Source: Candidatus Nanopelagicales bacterium
GTDB taxonomy: Bacteria > Actinomycetota > Actinomycetes > S36-B12
Direction of reading: 5' to 3'
Length of the DNA stretch: 64,000 bases
Assembly (NCBI GenBank): GCA_049315365.1
Contig: JBMOKH010000001.1
Span: 934 to 64,933 of the forward strand
Shown here: piece after piece, positions 40,101 to 63,940 of the stretch
How positions within the stretch are numbered: the first letter of the stretch is position 1
How the letters are laid out: every line of letters starts with the position of its first letter
Translations under genes and position numbers: made by a program
Notes under the pieces: model-generated
What the model was told of the DNA's origin: nothing
What the model saw: the letters and a program-made list of their open reading frames with translations, nothing else
Database searches by the model: none

Positions 40101-40115
40101 GGCGTGGAGTCGAAC

Positions 40116-40443: not shown

Positions 40444-40471
40444 TCCCAGTGGCAAGTGGAAGGGGGGTCCC

Positions 40472-43537: not shown

Positions 43538-43541
43538 TGTC

Positions 43542-45366: not shown

Positions 45367-47331
45367 GTGTCATACGACGCTAGCGCGATCACCGTTCTGG
45401 AGGGCCTCGACGCCGTCCGCAAGCGGCCCGGCATGTACATCGGTTCCACCGGCGAACGAGGACTCCACCATCTGGTGTACGAGGTAGTCGATAACTCCGT
45501 CGATGAGGCGCTCGCCGGCTACGCCACCAGCATCTCGATCACGCTCCTCGCCAATGGCGGCGTCCGCGTCATCGACGATGGTCGTGGCATCCCGGTCGAT
45601 GAGCACCCCATCGAGAAGAAACCGGCGCTCGAGGTCGTCCTGACTGTCCTCCACGCGGGCGGCAAGTTCGGCGGCAGCGGCTACTCAGTCTCCGGTGGCC
45701 TGCACGGCGTGGGGGTGTCGGTCGTCAACGCACTGTCGAACCGCCTTGATGTCGAAGTCCGCCGCGATGGTTCCGTTTACCGGCAGGTGTATCGCTACGG
45801 CGTCCCGGAGGCCGCCCTCGATAAGGGAGAGGCCACCACCGCGACCGGCACCACGATCACCTTCTGGGCCGACGCGGATATCTTCGAGACCACCCACTAT
45901 GACTTCACCACCCTCGCGCGCCGCTTCCAGGAGATGGCGTTCCTGAACAAGGGCCTCGTCCTTGAGATTGTCGATGAGCGTGAGGCGGTGGTCATCGAGG
46001 GTGAGGATGGCGAGGAGCCGGTCGAGGCAGTTCGCTCCGCACGCTTCTGCTACGAGGGCGGCATAGCTGACTTCGTACGGCACATCAACGCGAGCAAGGG
46101 CGTCGCGAACCCGAGCATCATCTCCTTCGAAACGGAGACCGATGACCACCGCATGAGCGCCGAGATTGCCATGCAGTGGAACACCACCTACTCGGAGTCG
46201 GTCTACACCTTCGCGAACACAATCAACACCACTGAGGGCGGCACGCACGAGGAGGGGTTCCGGTCAGCGATGACCACGCTCGTGAACAAGTTCGCGCGTG
46301 AGTGGAACATCCTCAAGGAGAAAGACCCCAACCTCAGCGGCGAGGACATCCGCGAGGGGCTCACCGCGATCATCAGCGTGAAGATGACCGAGCCGCAGTT
46401 CGAGGGCCAGACCAAGGCGAAGCTTGGCAACACCGAGATGAAAACCTTCGTCCAGAAGGTCGTCAACGAGCAGCTTGGTGAGTGGTTCGAGAAGAACCCG
46501 GCGGAGGGCAAGGAGATCGCCCGCAAATCGGTCAACGCTGCCACGGCACGGATCGCTGCCCGCAAGGCACGGGATCTCGCCAGGAACCGCAAGGGTCTTC
46601 TAGGCGGCGCCGGCATGCCTGGCAAGCTGATCGACTGCTCAAGTCGCGACCCGGAGGAGTGCGAGGTCTTCATCGTCGAGGGCGATTCAGCCGGTGGCTC
46701 AGCTCGACAGGGACGCGACCCGCGCCGTCAGGCGATCCTCCCGATCCGCGGAAAGATCCTCAACGTCGAGAAGGCGCGCATCGACAAGGTGTTGCAGAAT
46801 AACGAGGTTCAGGCTCTAGTGTCGGCCTTCGGCACCGGAGTGCAAGATGAGTTCGATATCAATCGGCTCAGATATCACAAAGTCGTTCTCATGGCGGATG
46901 CCGATGTCGACGGCCAGCACATCCGAACCCTGCTACTCACCTTGCTGTTCCGATTCATGAGGCCGCTCGTCGACCAGGGCCATGTCTTCCTCGCGCAACC
47001 ACCCCTTTACAAGATCAAGTGGTCGCGTGAGACTGCCGAGTTCGCCTACACCGACCGCGAGCGCGATGCGATCGTCGAGGCGGGCTTCGCCGCTGGGCGC
47101 CGACTCCCCAAGGACGAGGCAATCCAGCGCTACAAGGGCCTCGGCGAGATGAATGCGGATGAGTTGTGGGACACCACGATGGACCCGGAGCACCGAGTCC
47201 TGCTGCAGGTCACCCTCGACGACGCCGCCCAGGCCGACGAGATGTTCAGCGTCCTCATGGGCGAGGACGTCGAGTCCCGCCGAAACTTCATCCAGCAGAA
47301 CGCTCGCGACGTCCGCTTCCTCGATATCTAG
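45367..47331 (+). CDS. gyrB: DNA gyrase subunit B
   Basis: '[18 protein letters not shown]', '[15 protein letters not shown]', 'GGLHGVG', 'EGDSAGG', '[12 protein letters not shown]', '[12 protein letters not shown]'. Confidence 0.98.
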
Positions 47332-47354
47332 CACCTTGACCAACGGAGATTCCT

Positions 47355-49922: not shown

Positions 49923-50308
49923 CGGCGGAGTTAACGTCCGGCCCCCGGCAGGCTCGCCTCTACCTGTCAAGGGTTGACCCATGGTCGGTCGCGAAGGCGG
50001 CGTTCATGCTCGCGATCGCCGTGGGAATCGTCATCGTGGTCTCGGTTTCGGTGCTGTGGTTCGCCCTCAGCTCACTCGGGGTCTTCGAGACACTCTCGAG
50101 AAACGTCAATGAGGTGATCGGGAATTCACAGGCCAACTTCGACCTGATGACCGTGCTGGACTTCTCCCGAGTGCTCGGCGTGACGATCGTCCTCGCATCC
50201 GTCGAGGTCATCCTCGTCTCGGTGCTCGCGACCATCTTCGCGTTCATGTACAACCTCACGGTCGGCCTTACCGGCGGTGTTGAGGTGGTGCTCACCGACC
50301 GAAATTGA
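49919..50308 (+). CDS. DUF3566 membrane protein (Rv0007-like)
   Basis: GTGA overlap with the gyrA stop. '[21 protein letters not shown]' plus further helices. Conserved slot after gyrA. Confidence 0.75.
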
Positions 50309-50388
50309 TCACTCGCCGGACGCTATTCGAGGGGGATTGGTGCTTGCCCGTCCCCGTCCGGTAACCTGATCAGCCGCACCCGCGAAAC

Positions 50389-50463
50389 GGGCCTATAGCT
50401 CAGCTTGGTTAGAGCGCTTCCCTGATAAGGAAGAGGTCGGTGGTTCAAGTCCACCTAGGCCCA
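50389..50463 (+). tRNA. tRNA-Ile (anticodon GAT)
   Basis: Hand-folded cloverleaf: acceptor GGGCCTA/TAGGCCC, D arm GCTC-AGCTTGGTTA-GAGC, anticodon arm CTTCC-CTGATAA-GGAAG, T arm GGTGG-TTCAAGT-CCACC, discriminator A. CCA is not encoded. Confidence 0.95.
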
Positions 50464-50464
50464 C

Positions 50465-50590
50465 GTGAAGAAACTGCTGCTGCTCGCTGCCCTCGCCGGT
50501 GTCGGATATGTCGTGTACCGACAGGTCACCGCGAAAAAAGCGGAGCAGGACCTCTGGTCCGAAGCAACCTCGGAACCAGACTTGCGCTGA
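50465..50590 (+). CDS. 41-aa single-TM small protein with DLW motif (DLW-39-like)
   Basis: GTG..TGA translates to VKKLLLLAALAGVGYVVYRQVTAKKAEQDLWSEATSEPDLR*. It fills the tRNA-Ile/tRNA-Ala spacer. High-GC third positions. Not in the track (<60 aa). Confidence 0.55.
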   Translation: MKKLLLLAALAGVGYVVYRQVTAKKAEQDLWSEATSEPDLR

Positions 50591-50639
50591 CGAGTGAGAC
50601 AACTGAATATCGGCACGACGCACGGCCTCGGAACACCGA

Positions 50640-50712
50640 GGGGGTTTAGCTCAGTTGGTAGAGCGCTGCCTTTGCAAGGCAGAAGTCAGGAGTTCGAGTC
50701 TCCTAACCTCCA
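50640..50712 (+). tRNA. tRNA-Ala (anticodon TGC)
   Basis: Acceptor GGGGGTT/AACCTCC with the G3:U70 alanine identity pair. Anticodon arm CTGCC-TTTGCAA-GGCAG, T arm AGGAG-TTCGAGT-CTCCT. CCA is not encoded. Confidence 0.95.
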
Positions 50713-50773
50713 CCCGTATCAGAGCATGTTGCCCTTGCATGTCAAAGCCCCCCGGGGACTGCGTGTGGCCAAC

Positions 50774-52423
50774 CTACGACGCGGCCAGTTGGTTTCGGTA
50801 AAAGTCGGCTACAGCGCTGAACTGCAGTGAGCCCCAACCACTGGCCGGATCGAAACCCGGCGCCGCTGTGCAGCACCCAACGCCATAGAGGTCATTGGTA
50901 CCGATGGTGACATCAGTGAAGTACGAGGAGGCGCCCACAGGCGCCGAATAGAGCGCCCAATTGGGCAGCCCGAGCCGGACGCTTGGGTTGGCACTGAGGG
51001 ATTGAAGGACGGAGGCCAGACCGCCCGCGACGCCAGGAGCCGTGGCCGACGTGCCGCCGACGACAGTGAACTCGCACGAGCCGCCGGTCGTGCAGACCGG
51101 AATCGGCCCGAAGTCGGCCGGTGATGACACGAATGCCACATCTGGCGTGATGCGGCCCCCGCTAATGCCGAGTGAAGTCTGGTAGGCGGGCTGCGGAAGG
51201 CTACTCACCGTGGATCCGCCGCCTGCGTAACTCGGGCTGGAGTTCCAGACTTGCTGACCCGAGTCAAAATCACCAGCGGTGGTCGACTGGGTGCCGCCGA
51301 CCGACAGCACATTCGGCGATGATGACGGGTACTGGGCGGCCTGGTCGGTGCTGCCGGGGGCACATGCGGATGAACCGGTGTCGCCAGAAGACGCGACTAC
51401 CGTCACCCCGGTGGCGGCAGCCGACATGAGCAGCCACTCGGTCACATCGATTGCCTGCTCGGTGAGGTCTGTCTCGCAGAAACCGACGCTCGTCGAGATG
51501 ATCCGGGCACCGCCCGGGGCATAGGTGCCGGCAAGGGCCGCTGCGAACGGGAAGACCAGCGGTGAGTACGGATTGAACTGATAGACGTCGATGCCCGACA
51601 GGCCCGGTGCCATGAGGCTCGCGGCGATGATGTCGAGGGTTGCTTCCTGCGCGACGTCGCCGAAGACGGACGCAGGGGAGGCGTCGACCATGTTCACCGT
51701 GACCGGCGCAATGGGATCACTGAAGCATGACCGATAGAGATCAAGGGCTTGCTGCGAGGTGGGGGCCACCTCGAGCAAGGCGATCCGCACCCCCTTGCCG
51801 ATCGATCCCGCAGTCTGCAGGGGAGCCAGACCGTAGGTGTCCCTGAGCGAGGCGGCCAAGCCCTTCGTGGTCGGACACGGAGCCGGTGTCGATGCCGGGG
51901 CAGCAGGGGAACTCGTCGACGACGCAGTCGGGAGCAGTGCCGCGAGCCCGGCAACCTCGGACACGGTGCTGGAAATCGACTCCGGAGGCGAGATCGGCTT
52001 CGCCGGGCCGGCCACGGACAGGCCGGCTCCTGTTGGGGTCTCGAGGATGTCTGTGCCAAAGAATGTTTGTGCATCCGAGACACTCATCGTGCCGATGAGC
52101 ACGCTGCCGGTGGGATCGAGCTCCCCGGTGAAGCCCGCGGCGTTCAAGGTGCTGAGTGCTGCTTGGGCATCCGCTTCAGAAGCCCCGTACGCGGAGGCAA
52201 TGTCGGCCGGGGTCATCCACTGCGCAAAACTCGGGGACCCGGGGGTGCTCAGCAGTTGCACCTGCTGCGCGAGTCCGGCTTGATCCCGGACGAGTCCAAA
52301 GGCCACGGGCAGTTGCAGGTCTCCAGGAGCGGGGGAGCCATCACCGCCTGATGACGAGCAGCCTGCGAGGGCGATTACCGCACACACTCCGAGCGCTACC
52401 AGGCGTGCCCGGGTTGCCGTCAT
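50774..52423 (-). CDS. Lipoprotein peptidase S53 (sedolisin/kumamolisin-like) with pro-domain
   Basis: Lipobox 'VIALAGCSS'. Pro-domain-like 'LSTPGSPSFAQWMTPADIASAYGASEADAQAA'. Catalytic blocks 'GVRIALLEVAP....D', 'GVTVVASSGDTGSS', 'GGTSATAPGVAG'. Confidence 0.8.
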   Translation of the reverse strand: MTATRARLVALGVCAVIALAGCSSSGGDGSPAPGDLQLPVAFGLVRDQAGLAQQVQLLSTPGSPSFAQWMTPADIASAYGASEADAQAALSTLNAAGFTGELDPTGSVLIGTMSVSDAQTFFGTDILETPTGAGLSVAGPAKPISPPESISSTVSEVAGLAALLPTASSTSSPAAPASTPAPCPTTKGLAASLRDTYGLAPLQTAGSIGKGVRIALLEVAPTSQQALDLYRSCFSDPIAPVTVNMVDASPASVFGDVAQEATLDIIAASLMAPGLSGIDVYQFNPYSPLVFPFAAALAGTYAPGGARIISTSVGFCETDLTEQAIDVTEWLLMSAAATGVTVVASSGDTGSSACAPGSTDQAAQYPSSSPNVLSVGGTQSTTAGDFDSGQQVWNSSPSYAGGGSTVSSLPQPAYQTSLGISGGRITPDVAFVSSPADFGPIPVCTTGGSCEFTVVGGTSATAPGVAGGLASVLQSLSANPSVRLGLPNWALYSAPVGASSYFTDVTIGTNDLYGVGCCTAAPGFDPASGWGSLQFSAVADFYRNQLAAS

Positions 52424-52574: not shown

Positions 52575-53579
52575 TCACCGATCGTGGCGGGTTACCTGAC
52601 CCATGATCAGGCCCTCGCGCAGCGCGTAGGCGGCGGCAGCAGCGCGGTTCGGCGCACTGAGCTTGGCGAGGATGTGCTCGACATGCGTTGCGACCGTGCG
52701 GTTACTGATGACAAGGGCGTCGCCGATCTCCTGATTCGATAACCCCTCCGCCGCGAGGGTGAGCACCTCGAGCTCGCGGCGACTGAGGGGCCCAATATCG
52801 ATCGAGTCCATGCTCACGACGGTCGTGATCGGTTGTTCGCCTCGACACGGCACGACGCGGACCCGAAACCAGTCATCGTCATCGGGCCAGACGAATGATC
52901 CCCACGAGTTATGCACAGCGGCCCCCTTGGCCACTTCAAGCAATTCAGTGCCATCCGCTAGGAGCTTGTGGCCGGTGAGCCCGGGGATGCTGATCGCGGC
53001 CCCGGCGTCATCCAAGCCGACGGCCATGCTCCCGGCACCCAGCAGCATGGCAATCCACTTGCCGGATTGGAGCGGGTCAGCGAGGTTCCCCAGGGTCGCG
53101 CACAGGTGGGCCACGGCATCCCGGGCAATGTCGCTCGGGTGTTCAGTAGACAGGGTTGAGAGGTTGATGACTCCCGTCACACGTCCGTCGGGGGTCCGAA
53201 GGCACATGGTGAGGCCCTCTTTGAAACCCGCCGGGTAGAGCACATCAGCGACGGCCCAGTTGTCCAGCGGGTCTCCTGGCAAATCACGCATGCGAATCGG
53301 TCGCCCAGTAGCTTTGATTCCGAGGGCGTCCATCAATTCGTGGAACTCAGCGCTGTGCAATTCATCGAGGATCTGCTGCGAGTAGCCCTCGGAAGCGATC
53401 TGGACCGACTCGCCGGTGAGGGGGTTGATGGAGCAGATCTCAGCGGCCTCGAAGGGAATGATCCGCTTGAGCTCCTCAAGGACAGCCCTGCCTCGCTCCG
53501 CTACTGGGCCACTGTCCGATGCGATTGCGGCAATCGTCCCCATCGCACCGATGGTGGAATCGACCTCGACGGCAGACAT
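52575..53579 (-). CDS. LuxR-family transcriptional regulator with N-terminal GAF-like sensor region
   Basis: C-terminal HTH 'LSRRELEVLTLAAEGLSNQEIGDALVISNRTVATHVEHILAKL'. ATG 53579 chosen. The upstream 72 codons of the track ORF are low-complexity and would cover the divergent promoter. Confidence 0.8.
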   Translation of the reverse strand: MSAVEVDSTIGAMGTIAAIASDSGPVAERGRAVLEELKRIIPFEAAEICSINPLTGESVQIASEGYSQQILDELHSAEFHELMDALGIKATGRPIRMRDLPGDPLDNWAVADVLYPAGFKEGLTMCLRTPDGRVTGVINLSTLSTEHPSDIARDAVAHLCATLGNLADPLQSGKWIAMLLGAGSMAVGLDDAGAAISIPGLTGHKLLADGTELLEVAKGAAVHNSWGSFVWPDDDDWFRVRVVPCRGEQPITTVVSMDSIDIGPLSRRELEVLTLAAEGLSNQEIGDALVISNRTVATHVEHILAKLSAPNRAAAAAYALREGLIMGQVTRHDR

Positions 53580-53789
53580 ACGCGCATCGTGACACCTCTG
53601 TCGTGCGTCTCGCAGCGGAACATGCACGATTCGATCGTTCGTAACCAAACAGATACACGACGGGCGCAACTCACCTCCCAAAACAGGAGAAGCAAATCGG
53701 TAGAAATACGGATAGCCGCGACGACTCGTTGTCGCAATCATGTGTCTACCCGGGCGTCTTCGTGCGCTCCGCCTAGAACTGGAGGCTCC

Positions 53790-55130
53790 ATGCAACGCGC
53801 TCGAATAACCACTCTCGCAGCCACGGTCGCGACCGCAACCCTGCTGCTCGCCGCGTGCGGCGGCGGCTCCGAGACAGCCACCGAGTCGGCTGCCCCCGCC
53901 GCCTCCGCGGCATCATCAGCGGCGCCCGCCGAAGGCGGCCCCGCCACGGGCGAGCCGATCGTGATCGGCATGCCGATCGCGCAGTCCGGTCCCGCCGGCA
54001 TCGCGGATCACAAGGATTGCTGGAACGGCGCGATCCTCGCCCAGGAGACGATCAACGCGAACGGCGGAGTGAATGGCCGTCCGATCGAGTTGGATGTCAC
54101 CGACATCGACATCCTCACCCCCGAGGGCATCACGGCTGGATTCCAGAAACTGACCGGTGATGGCGTGAGCGCGCTCGTCAGCCCGTTCGTCATCATTCCG
54201 CCCCCCGCGCTAGACGTTGCCGCCGCCTACGGTGCTCCGTACATGAGCGGTGACACGAATATTGACGCCCAGAACATCAGGGCAAGTGATCCGGCGAAGT
54301 ATGGCAACTATTTCGTGGACCCGGCCGAGACCTACTACGGCACCGGATTCGTCACCTTCCTGTCCCAGTTGAAGGATTCGGGCAAGTGGACCCCGAAGAA
54401 CAACAAGGTCGACATCATCCGTGGTGACACCGCCTACAACCAGAACATCGCTCAGGCGACGATCGATGCGATCGCCGCCACCGAGGGTGCATGGGAGCTT
54501 GGCGAGGTCATCGACATCACGGCCGGAACGAAGGACTGGTCGCCGGTCCTGCAGAAGCTCGCAGCGAACGATGCCGGAGCCATCATGGTCGACCACTGGA
54601 TCGGTGCTGAGCTCGCATCCTTCTCGCAGCAGTTTGCTGCCGCACCGGTTGATGGCTCGCTCGTCTACCTCCAGTACGGACCGTCACAGCCTGAGTACCT
54701 CGAGATCGCCGGTGACTCGGCCGAGGGCTTCGTCTGGGGAACCGTCATCGGAACCGGCAACACGAGCGCCGAGGACAAGGCATTCCGTGCGGCCTACCAG
54801 GCAAAGTTCGCCGTGGATGACAAGACCATGGGCCTTGTCTACCCGGCGTGGTGCTACGACATGGTGAACGTTCTGGCGAATGCCTGGGCGAATGCCGACC
54901 CGGCGGACTTTGCGGCGGTCAATGCGTACATCGCGGCGAACCCGACGAATGGCGTCACGGGCCACCTCGACTTCGCAAACGGCGCGGTGCCGATCTACCC
55001 GACGGTCGAGACCGATCCCGCAGCCGGTGTCACGCACTACTTCTACCAGGTCCAAGACGGTCGCCACACGGTGATCGCACCCGACATCGACGCGGAGGCA
55101 GCCTTTGCTCCCGCACCGTGGATGAAGTAG
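53790..55130 (+). CDS. ABC transporter substrate-binding lipoprotein, branched-chain amino acid/amide (LivJ/AmiC-like, Peripla_BP_6) family
   Basis: GGAGG lies 5 nt upstream of ATG 53790. Lipobox 'LLLAACGGG'. 'IVIGMPIAQSGPAG....AILAQETINANGGVNGRPIEL'. The first 150 codons of the track ORF overlap the LuxR gene and are rejected. Confidence 0.85.
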   Translation: MQRARITTLAATVATATLLLAACGGGSETATESAAPAASAASSAAPAEGGPATGEPIVIGMPIAQSGPAGIADHKDCWNGAILAQETINANGGVNGRPIELDVTDIDILTPEGITAGFQKLTGDGVSALVSPFVIIPPPALDVAAAYGAPYMSGDTNIDAQNIRASDPAKYGNYFVDPAETYYGTGFVTFLSQLKDSGKWTPKNNKVDIIRGDTAYNQNIAQATIDAIAATEGAWELGEVIDITAGTKDWSPVLQKLAANDAGAIMVDHWIGAELASFSQQFAAAPVDGSLVYLQYGPSQPEYLEIAGDSAEGFVWGTVIGTGNTSAEDKAFRAAYQAKFAVDDKTMGLVYPAWCYDMVNVLANAWANADPADFAAVNAYIAANPTNGVTGHLDFANGAVPIYPTVETDPAAGVTHYFYQVQDGRHTVIAPDIDAEAAFAPAPWMK

Positions 55131-55133
55131 TCG

Positions 55134-55892
55134 ATGCCACTCCTGTCCTGCACCGACATCACGCTTGACCTCGGTGGTCGGCGGATTCTCGAGAGCGTCA
55201 CGCTCGAGGTAGGCAGGGCAGAGGTTGTCGGTCTTGCCGGCCCCAATGGGGCCGGCAAGACCAGCCTCTTCGAAGTGCTGTCGGGCCGCCAACTCAACCA
55301 TGGCGGCGACGTCACCCTCGACGGGACTTCCATCAGGAAACTGCCGATGCGCGAGCGGGTTGAACGAGGCCTCGTGCGCAGCTACCAGAGGCCGATCGTG
55401 CCGGCCGCCCTCACGGTCGGCGAGACCCTCAAGGCCGCACGCAGGGCCTTCAAGCCCTACCCGTCACGCCTTCGCGTGGAGTGGGCCGCGGAGTTCGTGA
55501 GACTGCGCGCTCACATGGACCAGCCCACCGGATCACTCGAGACCCTAGAGCGCCGCAAGCTCATGCTGGCCTGCCTCCTCGTCCGCGATCCGCGGATCGT
55601 CCTGCTCGACGAACCCGCCTCAGGACTGACCGGCTCCGAGATCGATGAGATCGACCTCGTCGTTCGCAAACTCTCACAAGAGTTCGGAATTGCCGTCCTG
55701 CTCATCGAGCACCGACTCGAACTGCTCGCAATGGTCGCGTCGAGGGTGCTCGTTCTCGACGTCGGAACGATCATTGCCGAAGGCCCGCCCGAGACCGTGT
55801 TCACCCTCCCGGCAGTCCGGCAGGCCTACTTCGACATACCCATCATCGACGCTGAGAGCCTCGATTCATCAGGATTGAGCGTGGCGATCTGA
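55134..55892 (+). CDS. ABC transporter ATP-binding protein (LivG-like)
   Basis: Walker A 'GPNGAGKTSLF', signature-like 'LETLERRKL', Walker B 'IVLLDEPASGL'. Confidence 0.9.
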   Translation: MPLLSCTDITLDLGGRRILESVTLEVGRAEVVGLAGPNGAGKTSLFEVLSGRQLNHGGDVTLDGTSIRKLPMRERVERGLVRSYQRPIVPAALTVGETLKAARRAFKPYPSRLRVEWAAEFVRLRAHMDQPTGSLETLERRKLMLACLLVRDPRIVLLDEPASGLTGSEIDEIDLVVRKLSQEFGIAVLLIEHRLELLAMVASRVLVLDVGTIIAEGPPETVFTLPAVRQAYFDIPIIDAESLDSSGLSVAI

Positions 55893-56641
55893 TGGCGATT
55901 CTTGAACTTGTTCGGGTATCGGCCGGCTACGGGCCGGTGCGCGTTCTTCACGACCTCAATCTCTCAGTCAATCCCGGCGAGCGCCTTGGCTTGGTCGGTC
56001 TCAACGGCCATGGCAAGACGACGATGCTCAGCGCAATCGTCGGCCTGACCGGTTGGCAGGATGGCTCGATCATCTTCGAGGGCCACCAGATCGGTGGGCG
56101 CCGCACCCACGGGGTCGGACGCAAGACGCCCAGTATCGTCCGACGGGGCATAGCACTCGCTCCGCAGGGGGATGCGATCTTTCCAGGCCTGACCGTGAAA
56201 GAGAACCTGGATTCCGGGGCGTACACGCGGGCCACCTGGCGGTCCCGCCGGCGTCGACGTGATCACGTCCTTGACGTCTTCGCCCCCCTTCGCCCGCTCC
56301 TGCGTCAGTCAGCGGGGACGCTCTCGGGCGGCGAGAGGCGCATGGTCTCCGTCGGCCGGGCACTTATGGCCGACGCCAAGCTCTACCTCGTCGACGAGCC
56401 ATCGCTCGGACTTGCCCCGAAGATCTCCCTCGGTCTCGTCGCCGCGTTATGCGAGATCGACATCGGTGACGGCGCCATGATCATCGCGGAGCAGAACCTC
56501 CCACTGCTGCAGGGCCGGGTCGACCGGGTCCTTGGGATGCATGCGGGTGAGTTGAAGCAGGACGTGGGTGAAGCCCTCGGCGATATTCCGCCAGCCGCCG
56601 AGGCCATGGCCCAGGGCATCCACCACGGGCAGGCGCTCTGA
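55892..56641 (+). CDS. ABC transporter ATP-binding protein (LivF-like)
   Basis: Walker A 'GLNGHGKTT', signature 'LSGGERRMVSVGRAL', Walker B 'LYLVDEPSLGLAP'. ATGA overlaps at both ends. Confidence 0.9.
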   Translation: MAILELVRVSAGYGPVRVLHDLNLSVNPGERLGLVGLNGHGKTTMLSAIVGLTGWQDGSIIFEGHQIGGRRTHGVGRKTPSIVRRGIALAPQGDAIFPGLTVKENLDSGAYTRATWRSRRRRRDHVLDVFAPLRPLLRQSAGTLSGGERRMVSVGRALMADAKLYLVDEPSLGLAPKISLGLVAALCEIDIGDGAMIIAEQNLPLLQGRVDRVLGMHAGELKQDVGEALGDIPPAAEAMAQGIHHGQAL

Positions 56642-57531
56642 TGGATGTCGTCTTCAGTGCGCTCCTGCTCGCCTCGATGTATGGGCTTGTCGCGATCGGA
56701 ATCTCCTTCACGTGGGCCAGCATCGGCATGCTCAACCTGGCGCAAGGCTTCATCTTCACCGCAGGCGGCTATACGGCCTTTCTATTCGCAGAGATCGCCA
56801 CGACGTACGGGGTTGAAGGTGTTGCCCTGTCCGTCGGGCTCATCGTCTCCGGGATGCTGGGCTCGGCGGTGGCCGGACTTGCGGTCGGGCTGGTTGCCTT
56901 TCTGCCACTCCAGGACCGCGACAACTTTCGGACGAGAAGCCTCATCGCAACGCTTGCCATCAGTCTCATCGGGACGCAGGTCTGGCTCATCTTTTTCGGT
57001 CCGCAGAACAAGCCACTCCCGCCCATCTTCGGGACCGGGCGGGTCGAGGTCGCCGGCAGCGGAATCGGCAATGGGCAACTCGGTGCGATCATCGTGGCCA
57101 TTCTCATGCTTGGCGCGGTAATCCTCTGGATGCGGTCAAGCCGGGCCGGCCTTCAGATGCGGGCGATGATGATGAATCCTCTCGGGGCAGCCGTGGTCGG
57201 CGTCTCGGTGAGAACCACGGGCATGCGGGTCCTCGCGATCAGCGGAGCCCTTACCGGCCTTGCTTCAGTGCTGCTCGCACAGACCTTCTTCGTCAGCCCC
57301 ACTTCGGGAGTCCAGCCCCTCACGGTAGGTCTCATCATCTCGCTGGCCGGCGGGCTCGGTTCGATCCCCGGCACGGTCGTGGCCGCTGGGCTGCTCGGGC
57401 TCGCCGAGGCGCTCACGGCCCGGTACCTGCAGCAATCACTCGTACCGTTCGTGCTATTCGGGATCGTGGTGCTCATCCTCATCTTCCGCCCGCGCGGCCT
57501 CGGTGGACTGCTGGAGGATGTCCGTGAGTAA
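56641..57531 (+). CDS. Branched-chain-type ABC transporter permease (LivH-like)
   Basis: 296 aa, about 8 helices. 'LLASMYGLVAIGISFTWASIGMLNLAQG' is typical of HAAT-family permeases. Confidence 0.9.
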   Translation: MDVVFSALLLASMYGLVAIGISFTWASIGMLNLAQGFIFTAGGYTAFLFAEIATTYGVEGVALSVGLIVSGMLGSAVAGLAVGLVAFLPLQDRDNFRTRSLIATLAISLIGTQVWLIFFGPQNKPLPPIFGTGRVEVAGSGIGNGQLGAIIVAILMLGAVILWMRSSRAGLQMRAMMMNPLGAAVVGVSVRTTGMRVLAISGALTGLASVLLAQTFFVSPTSGVQPLTVGLIISLAGGLGSIPGTVVAAGLLGLAEALTARYLQQSLVPFVLFGIVVLILIFRPRGLGGLLEDVRE

Positions 57532-59047
57532 GCAACCCCTCATCGGCCGGCGCTCCTGGCGCCCGAGTTGGCCCGTCAGCACCGACAAGGTCTTCAAGCG
57601 CCGTCGCTACATCGGCACCAAGCGCTCGGTGCTGCGTCTCAGCGGGTCGTACAACCCGAAGACCCTCAAGCGTGAACTCGTCCTCACGGACAAAAAGCCG
57701 ACCTTCTGGCTCCTCGGGCTGATCCTTATTCTCGTCCTGCCCATCGCCGCGAGCAATGAGCGCTTCTTCGCGCTCTTCGGCATCATCTGCATCTACGCGG
57801 CGATCAACGTCATGTGGACCCTCATCATCGGAACCGCCGGACTCCAGTCCTTCGCCACCCTCGCCACCGTCGGCGTCGGCGCCTATGGCGCGGCGTACCT
57901 GAGCATCACCTACGGGGTCCCGTGGCCCGCCATGCTCGTCATCGGCTTGATCCTCGGCGCCCTCATGGGATTCCTCATCTCCCTGCCCGCCAGACGACTC
58001 GATGGCCTCTACTACGCGCTCTTAACCTTGGGCCTGTCCGAGTTCTGCCGGAACTTCGTCACGCAGTCCGATGAACTCGGCGGAAAGTTCAACGGGGCAC
58101 TTTTCGGGGTTGATCGAATCGTTCCCAGCGACATGATGACTACTTGGCTGGGGCAGGCACTGCTGTACGTGTCGGCCTTCGCCCTGCTCCTCGTAGCCCT
58201 CGCGGTCTTCCGGTGGGTCAACGGCGGGCGCCTTGGCCTGCTGCTGCGCACCTCGGCGACCAACAAGGAGGACGAGGCGTTCGCCTCGGCGATCGGCATC
58301 AATATCCAGCGCGCAAGAACCTGGGTGTTCATGATCGCCAGTGCGGCACTTGGAGCGATCGGTGCGTTCTACGCCGCGTACATCGGAGGAACATCGCTAC
58401 AGGTGTTCAGCCTCGACCTGCTACTCCTCATGCTCGCCATGATCGTCATCGGTGGACTCGGTCGTGCAGAGGGTGCGGTTATCGGAACGATCATCGTCGT
58501 TGGCATCACCCAGTGGTTCACGGAGTGGGGACCTTGGCGCATCGTGCTCGTCGGCGTCCTCGCACTCCTCTCCGTCCTCTACACCCGAAACGGCATCTTC
58601 GGGCTCAAGGTGCAACTGAGTGAGATTCGGCAGCGTCGGCAGGCACTCCATCGCGCCGGGCTGACGAGCAGGTACGCAGAGTTCCTGCCGCAGCAGGCCC
58701 CAGACATCCACGACAAGTCGATCATCGTGGGCCGGACATTCGAGCGCGGACTCCGAGACCGGCTGAGGGGATGGATCACGCCGGCGCTCATCGAGGAGCA
58801 CCGCCAAAAGCCCCTCGGCCAGCACAGCGATCACCTTGAGCGAATCCTCAACTACTTTAGGCAGGGGCCAATCCCTGATAAGTACGCCGTCTACTGCGAG
58901 GAACCATTCCGGTCGTACCGAGTGGTCGCGCTGTCCGGCATGCCAGGCGTTCCGCCGCGGGTGGTCGACGACAAGGTCTACCCCTCCCTGGACGAGGCCT
59001 ACCACGCGGTCTTCCTGCGGCGGGTCAATGATTTGCGAGCATCATGA
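57518..59047 (+). CDS. Branched-chain-type ABC permease (LivM-like) fused to a ~140-aa soluble C-terminal domain
   Basis: Basic N-terminal extension, then a LivM-like core ('IICIYAAINVMWTLIIGTAGLQSFA', 'YYALLTLGLSEF', 'IVIGGLGRAEGAVIGT'). From about nt 58616 an Arg-rich linker 'QLSEIRQRRQALHR' leads into a hydrophilic tail that ends 17 nt before the next gene. Start is ATG 57518 or GTG 57524. Confidence 0.85.
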   Translation: MSVSKQPLIGRRSWRPSWPVSTDKVFKRRRYIGTKRSVLRLSGSYNPKTLKRELVLTDKKPTFWLLGLILILVLPIAASNERFFALFGIICIYAAINVMWTLIIGTAGLQSFATLATVGVGAYGAAYLSITYGVPWPAMLVIGLILGALMGFLISLPARRLDGLYYALLTLGLSEFCRNFVTQSDELGGKFNGALFGVDRIVPSDMMTTWLGQALLYVSAFALLLVALAVFRWVNGGRLGLLLRTSATNKEDEAFASAIGINIQRARTWVFMIASAALGAIGAFYAAYIGGTSLQVFSLDLLLLMLAMIVIGGLGRAEGAVIGTIIVVGITQWFTEWGPWRIVLVGVLALLSVLYTRNGIFGLKVQLSEIRQRRQALHRAGLTSRYAEFLPQQAPDIHDKSIIVGRTFERGLRDRLRGWITPALIEEHRQKPLGQHSDHLERILNYFRQGPIPDKYAVYCEEPFRSYRVVALSGMPGVPPRVVDDKVYPSLDEAYHAVFLRRVNDLRAS

Positions 59048-59063
59048 GCGGAGTTGAGTAACG

Positions 59064-61364
59064 ATGGCAACGACAACGATCACCGGCTACACCGACAAGG
59101 TGAGCGTCGCGCCGGGTGCGGAGATCACCTTCCACATCAGTGTCGAGAATGCCGAGTCGGCTCACGTCGAGATCGTCCGACTCATCCACGGTGATGAGCA
59201 CCCGGATGGCCCCGGCTTCATCGAGGAGGTCATCGCGAGCAGTGTCTCCGGTGATCATGCGGTGACGAAGCAGTTTGTCGATGTCGGCAATGCGATCGTC
59301 ATCGACGACCCAGCAGAGCGCCTCGCGCTCACCGGACCGATGACCCTCCACGCATATGTCTTTCCGACCACGCCGGCGAAGGGCCGTCAGGTACTACTCG
59401 GGCGCTTCTCGCTCACCGAGACCGCCGGGTATGCCCTCGGCATCAACGGCGAGGGACGCCTCACCTTCTGGGTCGGTGATGGCGTGGATACCGACGAGAT
59501 CACCTCGCAGGTACCCCTCATGCACCACACGTGGTACTTCGTGTCAGCCTCGTACGACCCCAAGTCGGGGAAGGCCCTCCTTCATCAGGAAGCGGTCGTC
59601 GGTCCGTACAACGGACGGCTCGGCAAGGTTGCGCCGTTCGATCACCGAAGCTCCGTCGAGCAAAAGCTGCGAATCAAGCCGAAGAGCGCGACCACGCCGT
59701 TCATGTGGGGTGCCGCGGCGAATTCAGCGCCGATTCGCGGGGCCTACAAGGACTTCGTATACAACGGGAAGATCGACCGGAGTGGGGTCTTCGACCGAGC
59801 GCTCACCCTCGACGAGATCAAGGCGGTCCATGCCGGGCAGCAGTTGAGTCCCGGGCCGCTGGCCTTCTGGGACACAGCCGAGGGCTACGGCCCGGATGGC
59901 ATCGACGACATCGTTCGCGATACGAGTCCGAGTGGCCTGAACGGGCGAGGTATCCAGCGGCCCGTCAGGGCAATGACGGGCTACAACTGGAGCGGTAAGC
60001 ATGATGACTGGCGGGTCGCTCCGGGCGAGTACGGGGCCATTGCCTTCCACGACGACGCCGTCGTTGACTGCGAGTGGGTGCCAACCCTGACGTGGACAGT
60101 TCCCGAGGGAACACGGAGCGGCGCCTACGCAGCACGGGTGACGATCGGTGACGTCGAGGATCACATCACCTTCTTTATCCGCCCGGCGAAGGCCACCGCC
60201 CCAATTCTGTATCTCATGCCGACGAACTCGTATCTCGCCTACGCCAACGAGATGATCGTCCACCACGTACCGGTCGGGCAGGCGATCCTCGCGCACCCCG
60301 CTGTGCTCACGGAGGCGGAGGCGGACTACTTCCAGGACCCCCGGTACGGACGGTCGACCTACGACCACCACTCCGACGGGGCAGGGGTGTGCTTCGCGTC
60401 ATGGAAGCGCCCGATCCTCAACATGCGCCCGAAATGGCGCTCATCAGCCATCGGGACGACCTGGCAGTTCCCCCGTGACCTCTCGCTCATCGCCTGGCTC
60501 GAGAGCCAGGGCTACGACTACGACGTGGCCACCGATCACGATCTCACCGAGCAGGGCATAGACCTCCTCAAGCAGTACTCAGTCGTGCTCACTGGATCGC
60601 ATCCTGAGTACTGGCACGAGGCCGGACTGAACGACCTCGAGGATTACATCGCCGAGGGCGGCCGACTCATGTACCTCGGCGGCAATGGCTTCTACTGGGT
60701 CATCTCGTATCGGGACGGCGAGCCGGAGTTGATGGAGGTCCGCAAGGGCGAGGCGGGGATGCGCGCTTGGCAGGCCGAGCCGGGCGAGTACTACCACCAG
60801 ACGTCCGCGGAGCGCGGCGGCATCTGGCGCAACAGGGCGAGGCCCCCACAGAAGCTCACCGGCGTGGGGTTCACGACACAGGGCTTCGATGAATGCCATC
60901 CCTATGTCCGGATGCCCGACAGCTACCACAAGTCGGTCGCATGGATCTTCGACGGCGTCGAGGGCGAGGTGTTCGGTGATTTCGGGCTGGCCCTCGGTGG
61001 AGCAGCCGGGCTGGAGACCGAGCGCTACGACCTTGAACTCGGGACGCCTCCGCATACGAAACTGCTCGCTTCATCGACGAGTTGGTCCGACAACTACGCA
61101 GGAGTCGTCGAGGACATCCTCTTCAATCACCCGGGCACCCTCGGGACGCAGAGCCCGACGGTGCGCGCAGACATGACGTACTTCACGACCGCGAACAACG
61201 GCGGAGTGTTCTCGACGGGGTCCATCGCATGGATGAGCGCGCTCCCCTGCTTCAACTACACGAACAACGTCTCTCAGATCATGAAGAACGTGCTCGACGC
61301 ATTCAGCAAGCCTGGCTCCCTCCCCGGAGGAGCTTGGGATCAAGAGGAGAAGTCGTGGACCTGA
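59064..61364 (+). CDS. N,N-dimethylformamidase large (beta) subunit family protein
   Basis: 766 aa. Blocks I recognise from DmfA2-type enzymes: 'VRLIHGDEHPDGPGF', 'NSYLAYANE', 'YDVATDHDLTEQG..LLKQYSVVLTGSHPEYW', 'ERYDLELGTPPHTKLLASS', 'VRADMTYFTTANNGGVFSTGSIAW', 'NNVSQIMKNVLDAF'. Recognition is from memory and is not database-verified. Confidence 0.85.
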   Translation: MATTTITGYTDKVSVAPGAEITFHISVENAESAHVEIVRLIHGDEHPDGPGFIEEVIASSVSGDHAVTKQFVDVGNAIVIDDPAERLALTGPMTLHAYVFPTTPAKGRQVLLGRFSLTETAGYALGINGEGRLTFWVGDGVDTDEITSQVPLMHHTWYFVSASYDPKSGKALLHQEAVVGPYNGRLGKVAPFDHRSSVEQKLRIKPKSATTPFMWGAAANSAPIRGAYKDFVYNGKIDRSGVFDRALTLDEIKAVHAGQQLSPGPLAFWDTAEGYGPDGIDDIVRDTSPSGLNGRGIQRPVRAMTGYNWSGKHDDWRVAPGEYGAIAFHDDAVVDCEWVPTLTWTVPEGTRSGAYAARVTIGDVEDHITFFIRPAKATAPILYLMPTNSYLAYANEMIVHHVPVGQAILAHPAVLTEAEADYFQDPRYGRSTYDHHSDGAGVCFASWKRPILNMRPKWRSSAIGTTWQFPRDLSLIAWLESQGYDYDVATDHDLTEQGIDLLKQYSVVLTGSHPEYWHEAGLNDLEDYIAEGGRLMYLGGNGFYWVISYRDGEPELMEVRKGEAGMRAWQAEPGEYYHQTSAERGGIWRNRARPPQKLTGVGFTTQGFDECHPYVRMPDSYHKSVAWIFDGVEGEVFGDFGLALGGAAGLETERYDLELGTPPHTKLLASSTSWSDNYAGVVEDILFNHPGTLGTQSPTVRADMTYFTTANNGGVFSTGSIAWMSALPCFNYTNNVSQIMKNVLDAFSKPGSLPGGAWDQEEKSWT

Positions 61365-61374
61365 GGGGAGCGAG

Positions 61375-62478
61375 ATGACGACGGGGTACGTCTGGCATGA
61401 GCTGTATGGCTGGCATGACACAGGCACGTATGCAGGCCTCCTGCCCGCAAGCCTGACGAGCCAGCCGTACCAGCACTTCGAGTCCCCCGAGTCCAAGCAG
61501 CGATTCCACTCCCTCGTCGAGGTCTCCGGGCTGGCACAGCACCTCACGCGGATCATTCCCGAGCCGGCGACGGATGACGACATCCTGCGCATCCACACTG
61601 CTGAGCACCTTGAGCGGATCAAGGCCGAGAGCGCCCAGCCCAAGGGCGGTGATGCCGGCGATGGCACATCACCGTTCGGCCACCAGGGGTTCGAGATCGC
61701 GGCCCTTGCGGCCGGCGGGTCGATCGCCGCCCTCAATGCGGTGCTCGACGGGACTGTCGACAACGCCTACGCACTCGTTCGCCCGCCCGGGCACCACGCC
61801 CGACCGGAAACTGGCATGGGGTTTTGCATCTTCGCCAACGCCGGTATCGCTATCAGGCACGCTCAGGCGGCAAACCCCGCCCTGCGGGTCGCAACGGTCG
61901 ACTGGGACGTCCATCACGGCAATGGCACGCAGGCCGCCTTTGTGTCTGATCCGAGCGTGCTCACGATCTCCCTCCACCAGGACGACCTCTTCCCGCGGGG
62001 CAGCGGAAGGGTGAGCGAACGCGGCGAGGGTGCCGGTGACGGCTACGCCATCAACGTTCCACTGCCGGCCGGCACCGGAAACGGCGGATACCTCCATGCG
62101 ATGCGCGAGGTGGTCGTGCCGGCGATTCGTCGATTCAAGCCGGACGTCATCGTGGTGCCCTCTGGTTTCGACGCGAGCTGCTTTGATCCGCTCGGCCGGA
62201 TGTCGGTGACAGCCTCGGGCTACCGCGCGATGACGAGGGTGCTCATGGACATCGCGGAGGAGGTCTGCTCGGGTCGCATCATGATGACGCACGAGGGCGG
62301 CTACTCGCCGACCTATGTGCCGCTGTGCGGGGTCTCCGTGCTGTCGGAGATGTCCGGGGTGGATGTGGACGTTGTTTCGGAGATCTACGCCGGCTTCGAC
62401 ACGATGCCTGGGCACGCCCTCATGCCATGGCAGATTGACGTGGTGCAGACCGCTCGGCAGGAGCACGGTCTCATCTAG
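61375..62478 (+). CDS. Histone-deacetylase-fold amidohydrolase (acetylpolyamine amidohydrolase / class II HDAC-like)
   Basis: 'RPPGHHA', 'DWDVHHGNGTQ', 'SGFDAS', 'HEGGYS'. GAGGGGAG lies 5 nt upstream of the ATG. Confidence 0.9.
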   Translation: MTTGYVWHELYGWHDTGTYAGLLPASLTSQPYQHFESPESKQRFHSLVEVSGLAQHLTRIIPEPATDDDILRIHTAEHLERIKAESAQPKGGDAGDGTSPFGHQGFEIAALAAGGSIAALNAVLDGTVDNAYALVRPPGHHARPETGMGFCIFANAGIAIRHAQAANPALRVATVDWDVHHGNGTQAAFVSDPSVLTISLHQDDLFPRGSGRVSERGEGAGDGYAINVPLPAGTGNGGYLHAMREVVVPAIRRFKPDVIVVPSGFDASCFDPLGRMSVTASGYRAMTRVLMDIAEEVCSGRIMMTHEGGYSPTYVPLCGVSVLSEMSGVDVDVVSEIYAGFDTMPGHALMPWQIDVVQTARQEHGLI

Positions 62479-62547: not shown

Positions 62548-63066
62548 ATGACCACTACTGCGACTCTGCATACCACCCTGGGCGACATCAAGATCAACCT
62601 CTTCGAGGATCAGGCCCCCAAGACTGTCCGCAACTTCACCGGGCTGGCCGATGGCAGTCAGGAGTGGACGAATCCCAAGTCCAATGCGAAGAGCAGTGAG
62701 CCGCTGTACGACGGCACGATCTTCCACCGCGTCATCTCCGGATTCATGATCCAGGGCGGCGATCCCCTCGGCACCGGCACCGGTGGCCCGGGGTACAAGT
62801 TCGATGACGAGTTCCATGGTGAACTCAACTTCGATCGGCCGTACCTGCTCGCCATGGCGAACTCAGGGCCGAAGACGAACGGCTCACAGTTCTTCATCAC
62901 CGTGACACCGACCCCCCATCTCAACCGCAAGCACACGATCTTCGGCGAGGTCGCCGACCAGGAGTCACGCGATGTCGTCGATGCGATCGCGACCGTCGCC
63001 ACGGGCGCCCAGGATCGTCCGAAGGAGAACGTCGTCATCAACTCGGTGACGATCACGCGCGACTAG
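62548..63066 (+). CDS. ppiA: Peptidyl-prolyl cis-trans isomerase, cyclophilin type
   Basis: 'FHRVISGFMIQGGDP', 'GGPGYKFDDEF', 'LAMANSGPKTNGSQFFIT', 'HTIFGEV'. Confidence 0.95.
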   Translation: MTTTATLHTTLGDIKINLFEDQAPKTVRNFTGLADGSQEWTNPKSNAKSSEPLYDGTIFHRVISGFMIQGGDPLGTGTGGPGYKFDDEFHGELNFDRPYLLAMANSGPKTNGSQFFITVTPTPHLNRKHTIFGEVADQESRDVVDAIATVATGAQDRPKENVVINSVTITRD

Positions 63067-63073
63067 CAGTCCA

Positions 63074-63940
63074 GTGACCGATCAGCCAGATGCCGTAGCG
63101 CCGGTGTGCTACCGGCACCCGGATCGGGTCAGTTACATCACCTGCACCCGGTGCGGCCGGCCGGTTTGCCCTGACTGCATGGTGGCTGCGCCGGTCGGCT
63201 TTCAATGCCGGGAGTGCGTGGCTGGGGCGGCGAGTGAGAGGGTCACCCCGACCACTGTCGCGGGCGGGCAGTACATCTCGAAGCCGCGTGTGACCTACGC
63301 CCTCATCGGGCTCAACCTCACGCTGTTCCTCCTGCAGTACCTAGGCGGGATCAATGAGGTTGCCGGCGACTGGGGGATGTGGCCGGTCGGGATCGCTGTC
63401 GGGGGCGAGTGGTGGCGGCTTCTCACCGGCGCGTTCCTACACGGTTCGTTCCTGCATATCGCCTTCAACATGTACGTGCTGTTCGCCCTTGGCCCGACCC
63501 TCGAGCGCGTCCTCGGCCATGGCCGGTATCTCATGCTCTACGTCCTCGCCGCCCTGGGCGGCGGCGTCGCGTCCTATGCCTTCTCCGATATGCGCACGGT
63601 CTCGGTGGGGGCGAGTGGCGCAATCTTCGGCCTCATGGGGGCACTCATCATCGCCGGCCGCAGGCTTCGGTACGACATCAAGCAGGTGGTCATCCTGCTC
63701 GGCATCAACGTGGTGATCGGCTTCCTGGCGCCCGGTGTCGACTGGCGCGCGCACCTCGGTGGGCTGGTCATCGGGGCCGCGGTGGCGTCCGTGTTCGTCT
63801 ATGCGCCACGAGCCCACCGGAACCTGTGGCAGACACTCGGCGTACTCGGCATCCTCGGGGTGCTCATCGTCGCCACCACCTGGCGAACCGCCCAGATAAT
63901 GGAGTTCGTCGCGCCCTTCGGCGTGACGCTCAACGCCTGA
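63074..63940 (+). CDS. Rhomboid-family intramembrane serine protease with N-terminal zinc-ribbon
   Basis: 'CYRHP....CTRCGRPVCPDC' ribbon, 'WWRLLTGAFLHGSFLHIAFNM', catalytic 'GASGAIFGLMG' and a downstream 'AHLGG' His. Confidence 0.9.
   Translation: MTDQPDAVAPVCYRHPDRVSYITCTRCGRPVCPDCMVAAPVGFQCRECVAGAASERVTPTTVAGGQYISKPRVTYALIGLNLTLFLLQYLGGINEVAGDWGMWPVGIAVGGEWWRLLTGAFLHGSFLHIAFNMYVLFALGPTLERVLGHGRYLMLYVLAALGGGVASYAFSDMRTVSVGASGAIFGLMGALIIAGRRLRYDIKQVVILLGINVVIGFLAPGVDWRAHLGGLVIGAAVASVFVYAPRAHRNLWQTLGVLGILGVLIVATTWRTAQIMEFVAPFGVTLNA

Follow-up and report, generated by a model that had tools for sequence, protein, structure and literature searches.

N,N-dimethylformamidase (DMFase) is a thermostable Fe(III) enzyme that degrades the man-made solvent N,N-dimethylformamide (DMF) and is built from two new folds, the origin of which its authors call unknown (PMC7686228; bioRxiv 10.1101/2019.12.17.879908). 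The iron is bound by Y399, Y440 and E521, H519 and N547 are essential, a nearby glutamate acts as the base, and F693 from an adjacent subunit constricts the pocket (PMC7686228; bioRxiv 10.1101/2019.12.17.879908). The Paracoccus enzyme has the composition alpha2beta2, and the characterized DMFases are soluble proteins with a free small (alpha) subunit of about 15 kDa. The large (beta) subunit alone is inactive, and the small subunit, which helps to form the active-site entrance, is required for activity (PMC7686228). The best substrate of the Paracoccus enzyme is N-methylformamide, with a kcat/Km of 6167 compared to 256 for DMF; N-ethylformamide and formamide are also accepted, while acetamide and larger acyl groups are rejected (PMC7686228). 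On plasmid pAMI2 of Paracoccus aminophilus a LuxR-family gene is located directly upstream of dmfA1, and its product, DmfR, is an activator of dmfA1A2 when DMF is present (PMC4543880). A genomic survey retrieved the DMFase large subunit in 952 genomes and the small subunit in only 41, and left fusions uncommented. The present analysis concerns a stretch of 64 kb from a Candidatus Nanopelagicales bacterium (contig JBMOKH010000001.1), called the window in the following, in which the region 52575..62478 contains an operon for an ATP-binding cassette (ABC) importer of the HAAT family and a homolog of the DMFase large subunit. Its central feature is that the last about 110 residues of one importer permease, which is of the LivM type, are a homolog of the DMFase small subunit.

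This permease has 509 amino acids (aa) and is encoded on the plus strand at 57518..59047. Its LivM/UrtC-like core (residues 1-382, 57518..58663) matches BPD_transp_2 with 9e-22, and according to Pfam the permease domain stops near residue 375. A linker (residues 383-407, 58664..58738) and the DMF_alpha domain PF26354 (residues 408-509 and the stop codon, 58739..59047) follow in frame. When the tail was searched by itself with phmmer against the PDB sequences, it matched 6LVB_B, the small subunit of Paracoccus DMFase, with E=2.5e-13, and it is 37% identical to residues 17-128 of pAMI2 DmfA1 (E=7e-20). An AlphaFold2 (AF2) model of the fusion, based on 67 homologs, has a mean pLDDT of 79.8, with a confident transmembrane core, a confident C-terminal domain, and a disordered linker (pLDDT <50 at residues 384-407); its top Foldseek match in the PDB is again 6LVB_B (E=1.4e-5, TM 0.78 over 127 columns). 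Precomputed Pfam matches on an identical protein consist of PF02653 and PF26354. Pfam and NCBIfam scans left the C-terminal 140 residues of the permease without a match, in the case of Pfam because PF26354 was absent from the copy used. No other DMF_alpha-like sequence is present in the window. The parts all come from known families, and the Pfam family DMF_alpha already marks the tail domain on such permeases; literature searches retrieved no paper on a permease-DMF_alpha fusion or on any transporter link of DMFase. The fusion suggests that transporter and enzyme form one linked unit, beyond being mere neighbors.

The gene for the large subunit homolog (59064..61364, plus strand, 766 aa) starts 16 nt downstream, and the gap contains a GGAG ribosome-binding site. 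The protein carries the domains DMFA2_C (PF20254, 4e-98) and Laminin_G_3, is aligned with 6LVB_A over 749 residues (4-752, E=2.6e-198), and is 44.7% identical to pAMI2 DmfA2. The residues Y393, Y433, E515, H513, N541 and E651 correspond to Y399, Y440, E521, H519, N547 and E657 of 6LVB, and all six are invariant in 66 of 66 large subunits of the clade with fused or split alpha. F687, the equivalent of F693, is F or Y in this clade, with one exception among the 66. The conserved ligands predict an Fe(III) amidohydrolase of the 2-Tyr-1-carboxylate type, and the large subunit is very probably catalytically competent. By analogy with DMFase, it should be dependent on the alpha domain carried by the permease.

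Several features of the permease point to a location of the tail in the cytoplasm. Before the first transmembrane helix the protein has a basic extension of 60 residues with 17 K+R, which is conserved across phyla (57518..57697); G10, R12, R28, R30, L50, E53 and K59 are invariant, and AF2 places two short strands in it with low confidence. About ten transmembrane helices are predicted by hydropathy and by AF2, a cytoplasmic loop of the EAA type is found around residues 250-262, and a basic helix (360-382) follows the membrane part. In Foldseek searches the transmembrane part resembles the permeases of type II ABC importers, i.e., 2NQ2, HmuU and BtuC. BtuC-like type II importers have ten-helix permeases with both the N- and the C-terminus inside. 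Helix count, charge distribution and this likeness therefore indicate that both ends of the permease, and hence the DMF_alpha tail, are probably cytoplasmic. The linker motif LPEEAPDIHDK is kept across phyla, despite the predicted disorder.

A protein search with the fusion yielded hundreds of relatives, and a scan with one genome per species yielded 342, from which 80 loci with flanks of up to 10 kb were kept (L numbers below) and their gene order determined by tblastn. These loci were chosen by likeness to the fusion protein, so they give no estimate of the number of large subunits without alpha. The best 120 fusion homologs are all about 510 aa long and combine PF26354 with PF02653. Permease and alpha form one frame without a stop codon in 63 related loci and the window (64 of 74 sequences compared). 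The order substrate-binding protein (SBP)-ATPase-ATPase-permease-permease::alpha-beta is kept on contigs of sufficient length. The large subunit is present in 60 of 61 scorable loci at >90% query coverage, and at lower coverage in the 61st (L064), and the SBP is present in 59 of 60. The loci span Nanopelagicales-like and other Actinomycetota, Burkholderiales including Limnohabitans, Rhodobacterales and Hyphomicrobiales, and the operon is also found on many Agrobacterium and Rhizobium plasmids. The conservation of this six-gene transporter-enzyme core is far above chance. The preliminary description of the locus had named a neighborhood that is unconserved in relatives as an argument against its own proposal; clearly, the opposite was found in the 80-locus comparison.

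Other architectures of the same parts exist. In Bradyrhizobium betae (L081/L082:6835-8369), as seen in two assemblies, a 388-aa permease gene and a 122-aa DMF_alpha gene are separate and overlap by one base, in an otherwise identical operon with a GerE regulator gene upstream. A free alpha gene beside the large subunit gene, with no transporter, was found in L083, pAMI2, Methylobacterium, Mycobacterium and Rhodococcus. In P0385, a single-chain DMFase of 891 aa, DMF_alpha (29-123) forms the N-terminus of a DMFA2_C large subunit. Together, the split, free and single-chain forms give Rosetta-stone support for an association of permease, alpha and beta. Among 1.84 billion representative proteins 314 DMF_alpha clusters exist, mostly of free proteins of ~120 aa. 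On a plasmid of Rhodococcus sp. USK13 a free alpha-beta pair with a LuxR-like regulator is followed by a gene for a channel of the AmiS/UreI family (L089:10490-11044), a family that transports urea and short-chain amides. A plasmid of Aminobacter sp. MDW-2 (L090:8001-12744) has two tandem large-subunit genes after one fused permease, the second copy lacking a small-subunit gene of its own, and then genes for a propionyl-CoA synthetase and a haloacid dehalogenase. In a neighbor-joining tree of large subunits (midpoint rooted, no bootstrap) the characterized DMFases with free alpha are the sister group of the fused clade, which splits into an actinobacterial and a proteobacterial branch. A derivation of the free-subunit DMFases from the fused clade via transporter loss is not supported by these sister clades, and no direction of fusion or fission is claimed.

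The importer fits the HAAT family (TC 3.A.1.4), as one operon encodes a Peripla_BP_6 protein, two BPD_transp_2 permeases and two LivG/LivF-type ATPases, all on the plus strand. The first gene (53790..55130) encodes the SBP, a lipoprotein of 446 aa with the lipobox LLLAAC (Peripla_BP_6, 4e-26). It is followed by the genes for a LivG/UrtD-like ATPase (55134..55892, 252 aa; ABC_tran 4e-20, LivG 2e-41, UrtD 2e-37), a LivF/UrtE-like ATPase (55892..56641, 249 aa; ABC_tran 1.6e-27, UrtE 1e-41, LivF 1e-39) and a LivH/UrtB-like permease (56641..57531, 296 aa; BPD_transp_2 2e-26, UrtB 4e-35), which precedes the fused permease. Thus, the importer type and the DMFase large-subunit homolog, both named in the preliminary description, were confirmed by Pfam, NCBIfam and PDB searches. 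Every component stays far below the NCBIfam equivalog cut-offs (e.g., UrtB 122 vs 250, LivG 142 vs 362, UrtA 15 vs 493), which rules out LivJHMGF or UrtABCDE proper. The best solved relative of the SBP is 3H5L, an uncharacterized 'putative branched-chain amino acid ABC transporter' (2.4e-47), and AmiC or UrtA structures gave no match at E<1e-3. The SBP is thus not close to AmiC, UrtA or FmdD-type binders of amides or urea, and gives no clue to the substrate.

Clues to the substrate come from the neighbors of the module in other genomes. Genes for the heavy and light chains of methylamine dehydrogenase and for a MauD-like thioredoxin-fold protein adjoin it in three arrangements. They are located upstream and co-directional in two betaproteobacterial metagenome-assembled genomes (MAGs; L051/L052, about 2900-5700), downstream and co-directional, with tight junctions between the mau-like open reading frames, in Bradyrhizobium sp. 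HKCCYLS3077 (L072:13954-16812), and convergent, together with a cytochrome c gene, in Limnohabitans sp. T6-5 (L070:16041-19919). In Limnohabitans planktonicus II-D5 (L061:15258-21529) and Limnohabitans sp. DM1 (L075) the module is followed by a gene set that encodes, in this order, a class I GATase, a cytochrome P450, a glutamine-synthetase-like protein, a ferredoxin-reductase-type protein and an amino-acid permease, and that we take to be reminiscent of the ipu gamma-glutamylation route for alkylamines. Together with the preference of Paracoccus DMFase for N-methylformamide and the AmiS/UreI channel gene of the Rhodococcus cluster, these clues favor a small N-alkylformamide that is split into a primary alkylamine and formate, at least in Proteobacteria; for the organism of the window we infer the substrate. 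A review (PMC10781810) contains nothing on N-alkylformamide transport.

The regulator gene (52575..53579, minus strand, 334 aa) is transcribed divergently from the importer operon. Its product combines a tandem GAF-like/PAS-like sensor (about 1-260) with a GerE helix-turn-helix (264-319; GerE 5.5e-19 in Pfam), and residues 13-311 are 27% identical to residues 17-321 of the pAMI2 LuxR protein (E=2e-22). By this alignment, which covers nearly the full length including the sensor, it is a homolog of DmfR. The GAF_2 match of the regulator itself is sub-threshold (E=0.014), 32 of 63 homologs match GAF_2, and the AF2 model (pLDDT 90.6) retrieved quorum-sensing LuxR receptors, phytochrome GAF-PHY modules and the GAF domain 3K2N in Foldseek. 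The earlier idea of a divergent LuxR regulator with a GAF-like sensor is thus reasonable. A divergent, adjacent regulator gene was found in 24 of 24 Nanopelagicales-like loci and in 3 of 3 other actinobacterial loci. In about 15 proteobacterial loci a GerE regulator gene is located 3' of the large subunit gene; it shares only the helix-turn-helix with the window regulator and DmfR, and was rejected as a DmfR ortholog. The regulator at the Agrobacterium locus is AraC-like and unrelated.

The intergenic region between the regulator and the SBP genes (53580..53789), taken as the divergent promoter/operator region, is 210 bp long and, as had been noted, AT-richer than the operon (GC 56.7% vs 64.1%). 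An alignment of 13 orthologous regions contains two conserved blocks. One is an imperfect palindrome, ATCGGTA-GAAA-TACGGAT (ATCGGTAGAAATACGGAT in the window), at 53696..53713, 77-94 nt upstream of the SBP start codon. In several relatives it is a perfect 8-2-8 inverted repeat, ATCCGTCA TT TGACGGAT. A degenerate pattern of the palindrome has a single match in the window, where 0 are expected, and a single site in every one of 16 related loci; the pattern was partly derived from loci that were later counted, and some of the counted loci are outside the derivation set. The palindrome is a candidate operator for the LuxR regulator. The second block, TTCGTAACCAAACAGATAC at 53638..53656, is found between the palindrome and the start codon of the LuxR gene, and relatives have the consensus TTCGTRACCRAAC. 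It occurs nowhere else in the window, is non-palindromic, and could act as a promoter element or as another binding site.

Taken together, the locus is best read as a dmfR-dmfA1-dmfA2 unit that has merged with a HAAT importer into an inducible system for the uptake and hydrolysis of a small N-substituted amide, with N-alkylformamides, e.g., N-methylformamide, as the most likely substrates; we assign this reading a probability of roughly 60%. The general idea of the preliminary description, i.e., import followed by cleavage of a C-N amide bond, stands. The DmfR-like regulator would sense the amide via its GAF-like domain and act at the palindrome 53696..53713. The importer would then bring in the neutral, membrane-permeant amide at the expense of ATP. 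Since the large subunit should need an alpha subunit and no other is encoded in the window, it would be expected to assemble on the permease tail, and docking there would bring the Fe(III) amidohydrolase to the point where the importer opens into the cytoplasm. Immediate hydrolysis of the amide would yield formate and an alkylammonium ion, two charged products that would be trapped inside (metabolic trapping). Small neutral amides cross membranes readily, so that their import would be futile unless they are converted at once. Because DMFase is alpha2beta2 and each importer carries one alpha, one beta dimer may even bridge two importers. That importer and soluble metallo-amidohydrolase form one machine for such a 'vectorial hydrolysis' of the amide on its exit from the transporter, and that this is an old and widespread freshwater system and a natural relative or possible source of the xenobiotic dimethylformamidases, is a tentative extension, to which we give less than even odds.

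The last gene of the operon (61375..62478, plus strand, 367 aa) encodes a Zn-dependent amidohydrolase with the fold of class II histone deacetylases (HDACs; Hist_deacetyl, 2e-87). It is aligned with 1ZZ0, the HDAH of Bordetella/Alcaligenes FB188, from residue 1 to 340 (E=1.5e-112), and further solved relatives are PA3774-type HdaH, propanil hydrolase (9GKU, 9e-101) and dimethoate hydrolase (9GKW, 4e-95). The catalytic residues H142, H143 and Y312 of HDAH and the Zn ligands D180, H182 and D268 are all kept, and together with the closest similarity to HDAH they classify the protein as an HdaH-type amidohydrolase. The label of an acetylpolyamine amidohydrolase (APAH), which had been given to it before, was rejected, because the APAH-annotated structure 3MEN matches with only 3.5e-36, compared to 1e-95 to 1e-112 for HdaH-type structures. 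In a survey of bacterial deacylases (PMC11532494), HdaH, the dimethoate hydrolase DmhA and the propanil hydrolase PrpH are grouped in sub-cluster 1b, and DmhA and PrpH have diverged into small-molecule amidohydrolases, with DmhA freeing methylamine from dimethoate.

The HdaH gene had been counted as a part of the uptake operon. It is indeed adjacent downstream in 21 of 22 Nanopelagicales-like loci, but it is outside of the conserved core, and none of 27 proteobacterial loci has it at this position. It is located two genes downstream in L054 and L057, both from other Actinomycetota, and directly 5' of the SBP gene in L064 and L071, both from Rhodobacterales. These three different gene orders indicate that HdaH is a lineage-specific accessory that has been recruited repeatedly. 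It would probably widen the acyl range, e.g., to N-alkylacetamides or other N-acyl amines that enter via the same importer, because Paracoccus DMFase rejects substitution on the carbonyl carbon. In six sister loci (L013:14953-16572; L006, L012, L015, L026, L039) an Amidohydro_3 gene (539 aa) shares 4 nt with the HdaH gene at the stop codon of the latter, so that three amidohydrolase folds are encoded in one operon. The best solved relatives of the Amidohydro_3 protein are the uncharacterized metal-dependent hydrolases 3ICJ and 3IGH; the N-substituted formamide deformylase NfdA is also a protein of the amidohydrolase superfamily, and of similar size. The Gaiellales genes between the large subunit and HdaH genes, which encode a xylose-isomerase-like TIM barrel protein and a GFO/IDH/MocA oxidoreductase, gave no interpretable hint.

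All eight open reading frames were present at the positions given in the preliminary description, seven of them co-directional and tightly packed, and the domain assignments of all eight genes were borne out by the Pfam scan. Of the junctions described, the three gaps (3, 16 and 10 nt) and the overlap of 14 nt were reproduced, but those at 55892 and 56641 are not ATGA; they are one-base overlaps of the form TGATG, the A being common to the stop codon TGA and the start codon ATG. The start codons at 53579 (LuxR) and 57518 (permease) are backed by homolog alignments. A scan for promoter and terminator consensus sequences inside of the operon found no sites above chance. The GC content of the operon (64.1%) does not differ from that of the host (64.9%). 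Proteins identical to those of the window are found on freshwater metagenome contigs, the closest genome is a Candidatus Nanopelagicales MAG (96% permease identity) and the next an 'acSTL' actinobacterial MAG, and therefore the host is considered to be a freshwater actinobacterium.

The operon is located within a conserved origin-proximal actinobacterial region (about 40000..50400 and 62548..63940 of the window, by identity to L091/L092), with dnaN-recF-DciA-gyrB-gyrA-DUF3566 upstream and genes for the cyclophilin ppiA and a rhomboid protease downstream. The next gene downstream of the regulator gene, on the same minus strand and separated from it by a 151-nt gap, encodes a pro-kumamolisin/sedolisin-type S53 peptidase of 549 aa (50774..52423), and the genes for tRNA-Ile(GAT) and tRNA-Ala(TGC) lie just past its 3' end (50389..50714). 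Sedolisin, regulator and operon thus form a block of about 11.7 kb that is bounded by the tRNA genes and ppiA. The sedolisin was found only in the closest relative, L001 (81%).

Several observations weigh against our reading of the locus as an uptake and hydrolysis system for N-alkylformamides. The SBP has no detectable affinity to known binders of amides or urea. No genes for methylamine or alkylamine catabolism were found in the 64 kb of the window, and amine-catabolic neighbors occur in no actinobacterial locus and in just 6 of about 33 loci from Proteobacteria. With the characterized DMFases, which form a sister clade, the large subunit shares only 44-47% identity, and its specificity may therefore differ. 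The split variant of B. betae indicates that the covalent link is dispensable. The topology of the permease is based on a simple charge and helix count and on an AF2 model with a pTM of 0.65. The role given to the HdaH-type enzyme is speculative, and docking, kinetic benefit and the substrate of the fused members are all inferred.

The split variant also bears on the alternative that survives best, namely, that the fusion is a matter of bookkeeping, which ensures co-expression and a 1:1 ratio of small subunit to transporter, or that the tail is clipped off, in both cases leaving an ordinary soluble alpha2beta2 DMFase uncoupled from transport. B. betae keeps the gene order without the covalent link, the characterized DMFases are soluble with free small subunits, and cleavage could take place in the linker, for which disorder is predicted. 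However, operon membership already ensures co-expression, the linker motif itself is conserved, and the fusion has stayed in frame in 63 related loci and the window, across phyla and across 50% sequence divergence. We therefore regard an uncoupled enzyme as unlikely, though as a serious option.

A second alternative concerns the substrate, which could be another N-acyl compound instead of a formamide. N-acetylated amines and polyamines or N-acyl (beta-)amino acids, for example, would be deacylated by the DMFase-type and HdaH-type enzymes, along the lines of the preliminary description. The DMFA2 fold includes the N-acetyl-(R)-beta-phenylalanine acylase 8HUY (5e-113), the SBP is from a family of amino-acid-type binding proteins, and the fused clade is sister to the proven DMFases and not nested within them. 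HdaH enzymes, moreover, take off acetyl and other acyl groups (PMC11532494). Yet the large subunit matches DMFase with 664 bits and the acylase with only 382 bits. The acylase entries among the solved structures yielded no chain for a small subunit, which in the present operon exists and is conserved. At the position that constricts the pocket, F693, the clade has F or Y with a single exception, the methylamine dehydrogenase neighbors indicate a very small amine product, and the HdaH gene is absent from most loci. A non-formamide substrate is thus quite unlikely.

A regulatory function of the DMF_alpha tail, by which it would report the state of the enzyme or the presence of product to the permease and gate import by trans-inhibition, is improbable. 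Some ABC importers do have C-terminal regulatory domains, e.g., MetN and ModC, there on the ATPase; however, no precedent for such a domain on a HAAT permease was found here, the small subunit is established as a structural partner and activator of the large subunit, and a regulatory tail would in any case be compatible with anchoring of the enzyme. It is hardly credible that the operon arose recently in response to DMF as an industrial solvent and came in by horizontal transfer like the dmf clusters on plasmids, despite its homology to all three pAMI2 components (dmfR-dmfA1-dmfA2), its position beside the tRNA-Ile and tRNA-Ala genes, and its many copies on Agrobacterium and Rhizobium plasmids, since the fused clade is deeply divergent (about 50% identity) with a tree that roughly follows phylum boundaries, is common in MAGs from lakes and rivers, matches its host in GC content (64.1% vs 64.9%), and excludes the enzymes of proven DMF degraders, which form a separate free-subunit clade, two of them beside insertion sequence elements.

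The fusion has several implications. It may explain some of the apparently missing small subunits of the survey of 952 genomes. It also shows that in abundant lake bacteria (Nanopelagicales, Limnohabitans and relatives of Rhodobacterales) the pairing of a DMFase-type enzyme with an ABC importer is old and conserved. The methylamine dehydrogenase neighbors point to N-methylformamide-like compounds as natural substrates, which gives a hint at the natural role of DMFase, and this role is approachable in cultivable carriers, i.e., Agrobacterium, Bradyrhizobium and Limnohabitans. A permease that carries an enzyme subunit would, if true, be an unusual transport metabolon, hard-wired at the genetic level, and might show how cells can accumulate a solute to which their membranes are leaky.

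Compared with the DmfA1/DmfA2/DmfR systems of Paracoccus aminophilus pAMI2, Paracoccus sp. DMF (6LVB) and Methylobacterium sp. DM1, all three components have homologs in the window. The order regulator - alpha - beta of the pAMI2 dmf cluster is kept, but five transporter genes are located between the window regulator and alpha, and the regulator gene is divergent, in contrast to the co-directional gene of pAMI2. Alpha is the C-terminal domain of a membrane permease instead of a free 15-kDa protein. The hosts of the fused clade are mostly uncultured freshwater bacteria and not solvent-degrading isolates. DMFase hydrolyzes DMF to dimethylamine and formate, a reaction that the sister-clade enzyme of the window may share. 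With LivJHMGF and UrtABCDE the locus shares the five components and their Pfam families, and its permeases and ATPases score about equally on the Liv and Urt models, but in contrast to both systems its LivM-like subunit has a DMF_alpha tail and the conserved basic N-terminal extension of 60 residues. The HDAC-fold enzyme is similar to HdaH/HDAH, DmhA and PrpH, keeps the catalytic residues of HDAH, and differs from these enzymes by its setting in an operon with a transporter and a DMFase; the term 'genomic context' is absent from passages of PMC11532494, and these passages describe no such operon context. Uptake that is coupled to immediate conversion at the membrane, by which backflow of the solute is prevented, is well known from group translocation by the phosphotransferase system (PTS) and from vectorial acylation by FadL/FadD. 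The likeness to the PTS and FadL/FadD is a functional analogy only, without homology, and the coupling encoded in the window would differ from both in that an enzyme subunit is covalently attached to the permease of an ABC importer.

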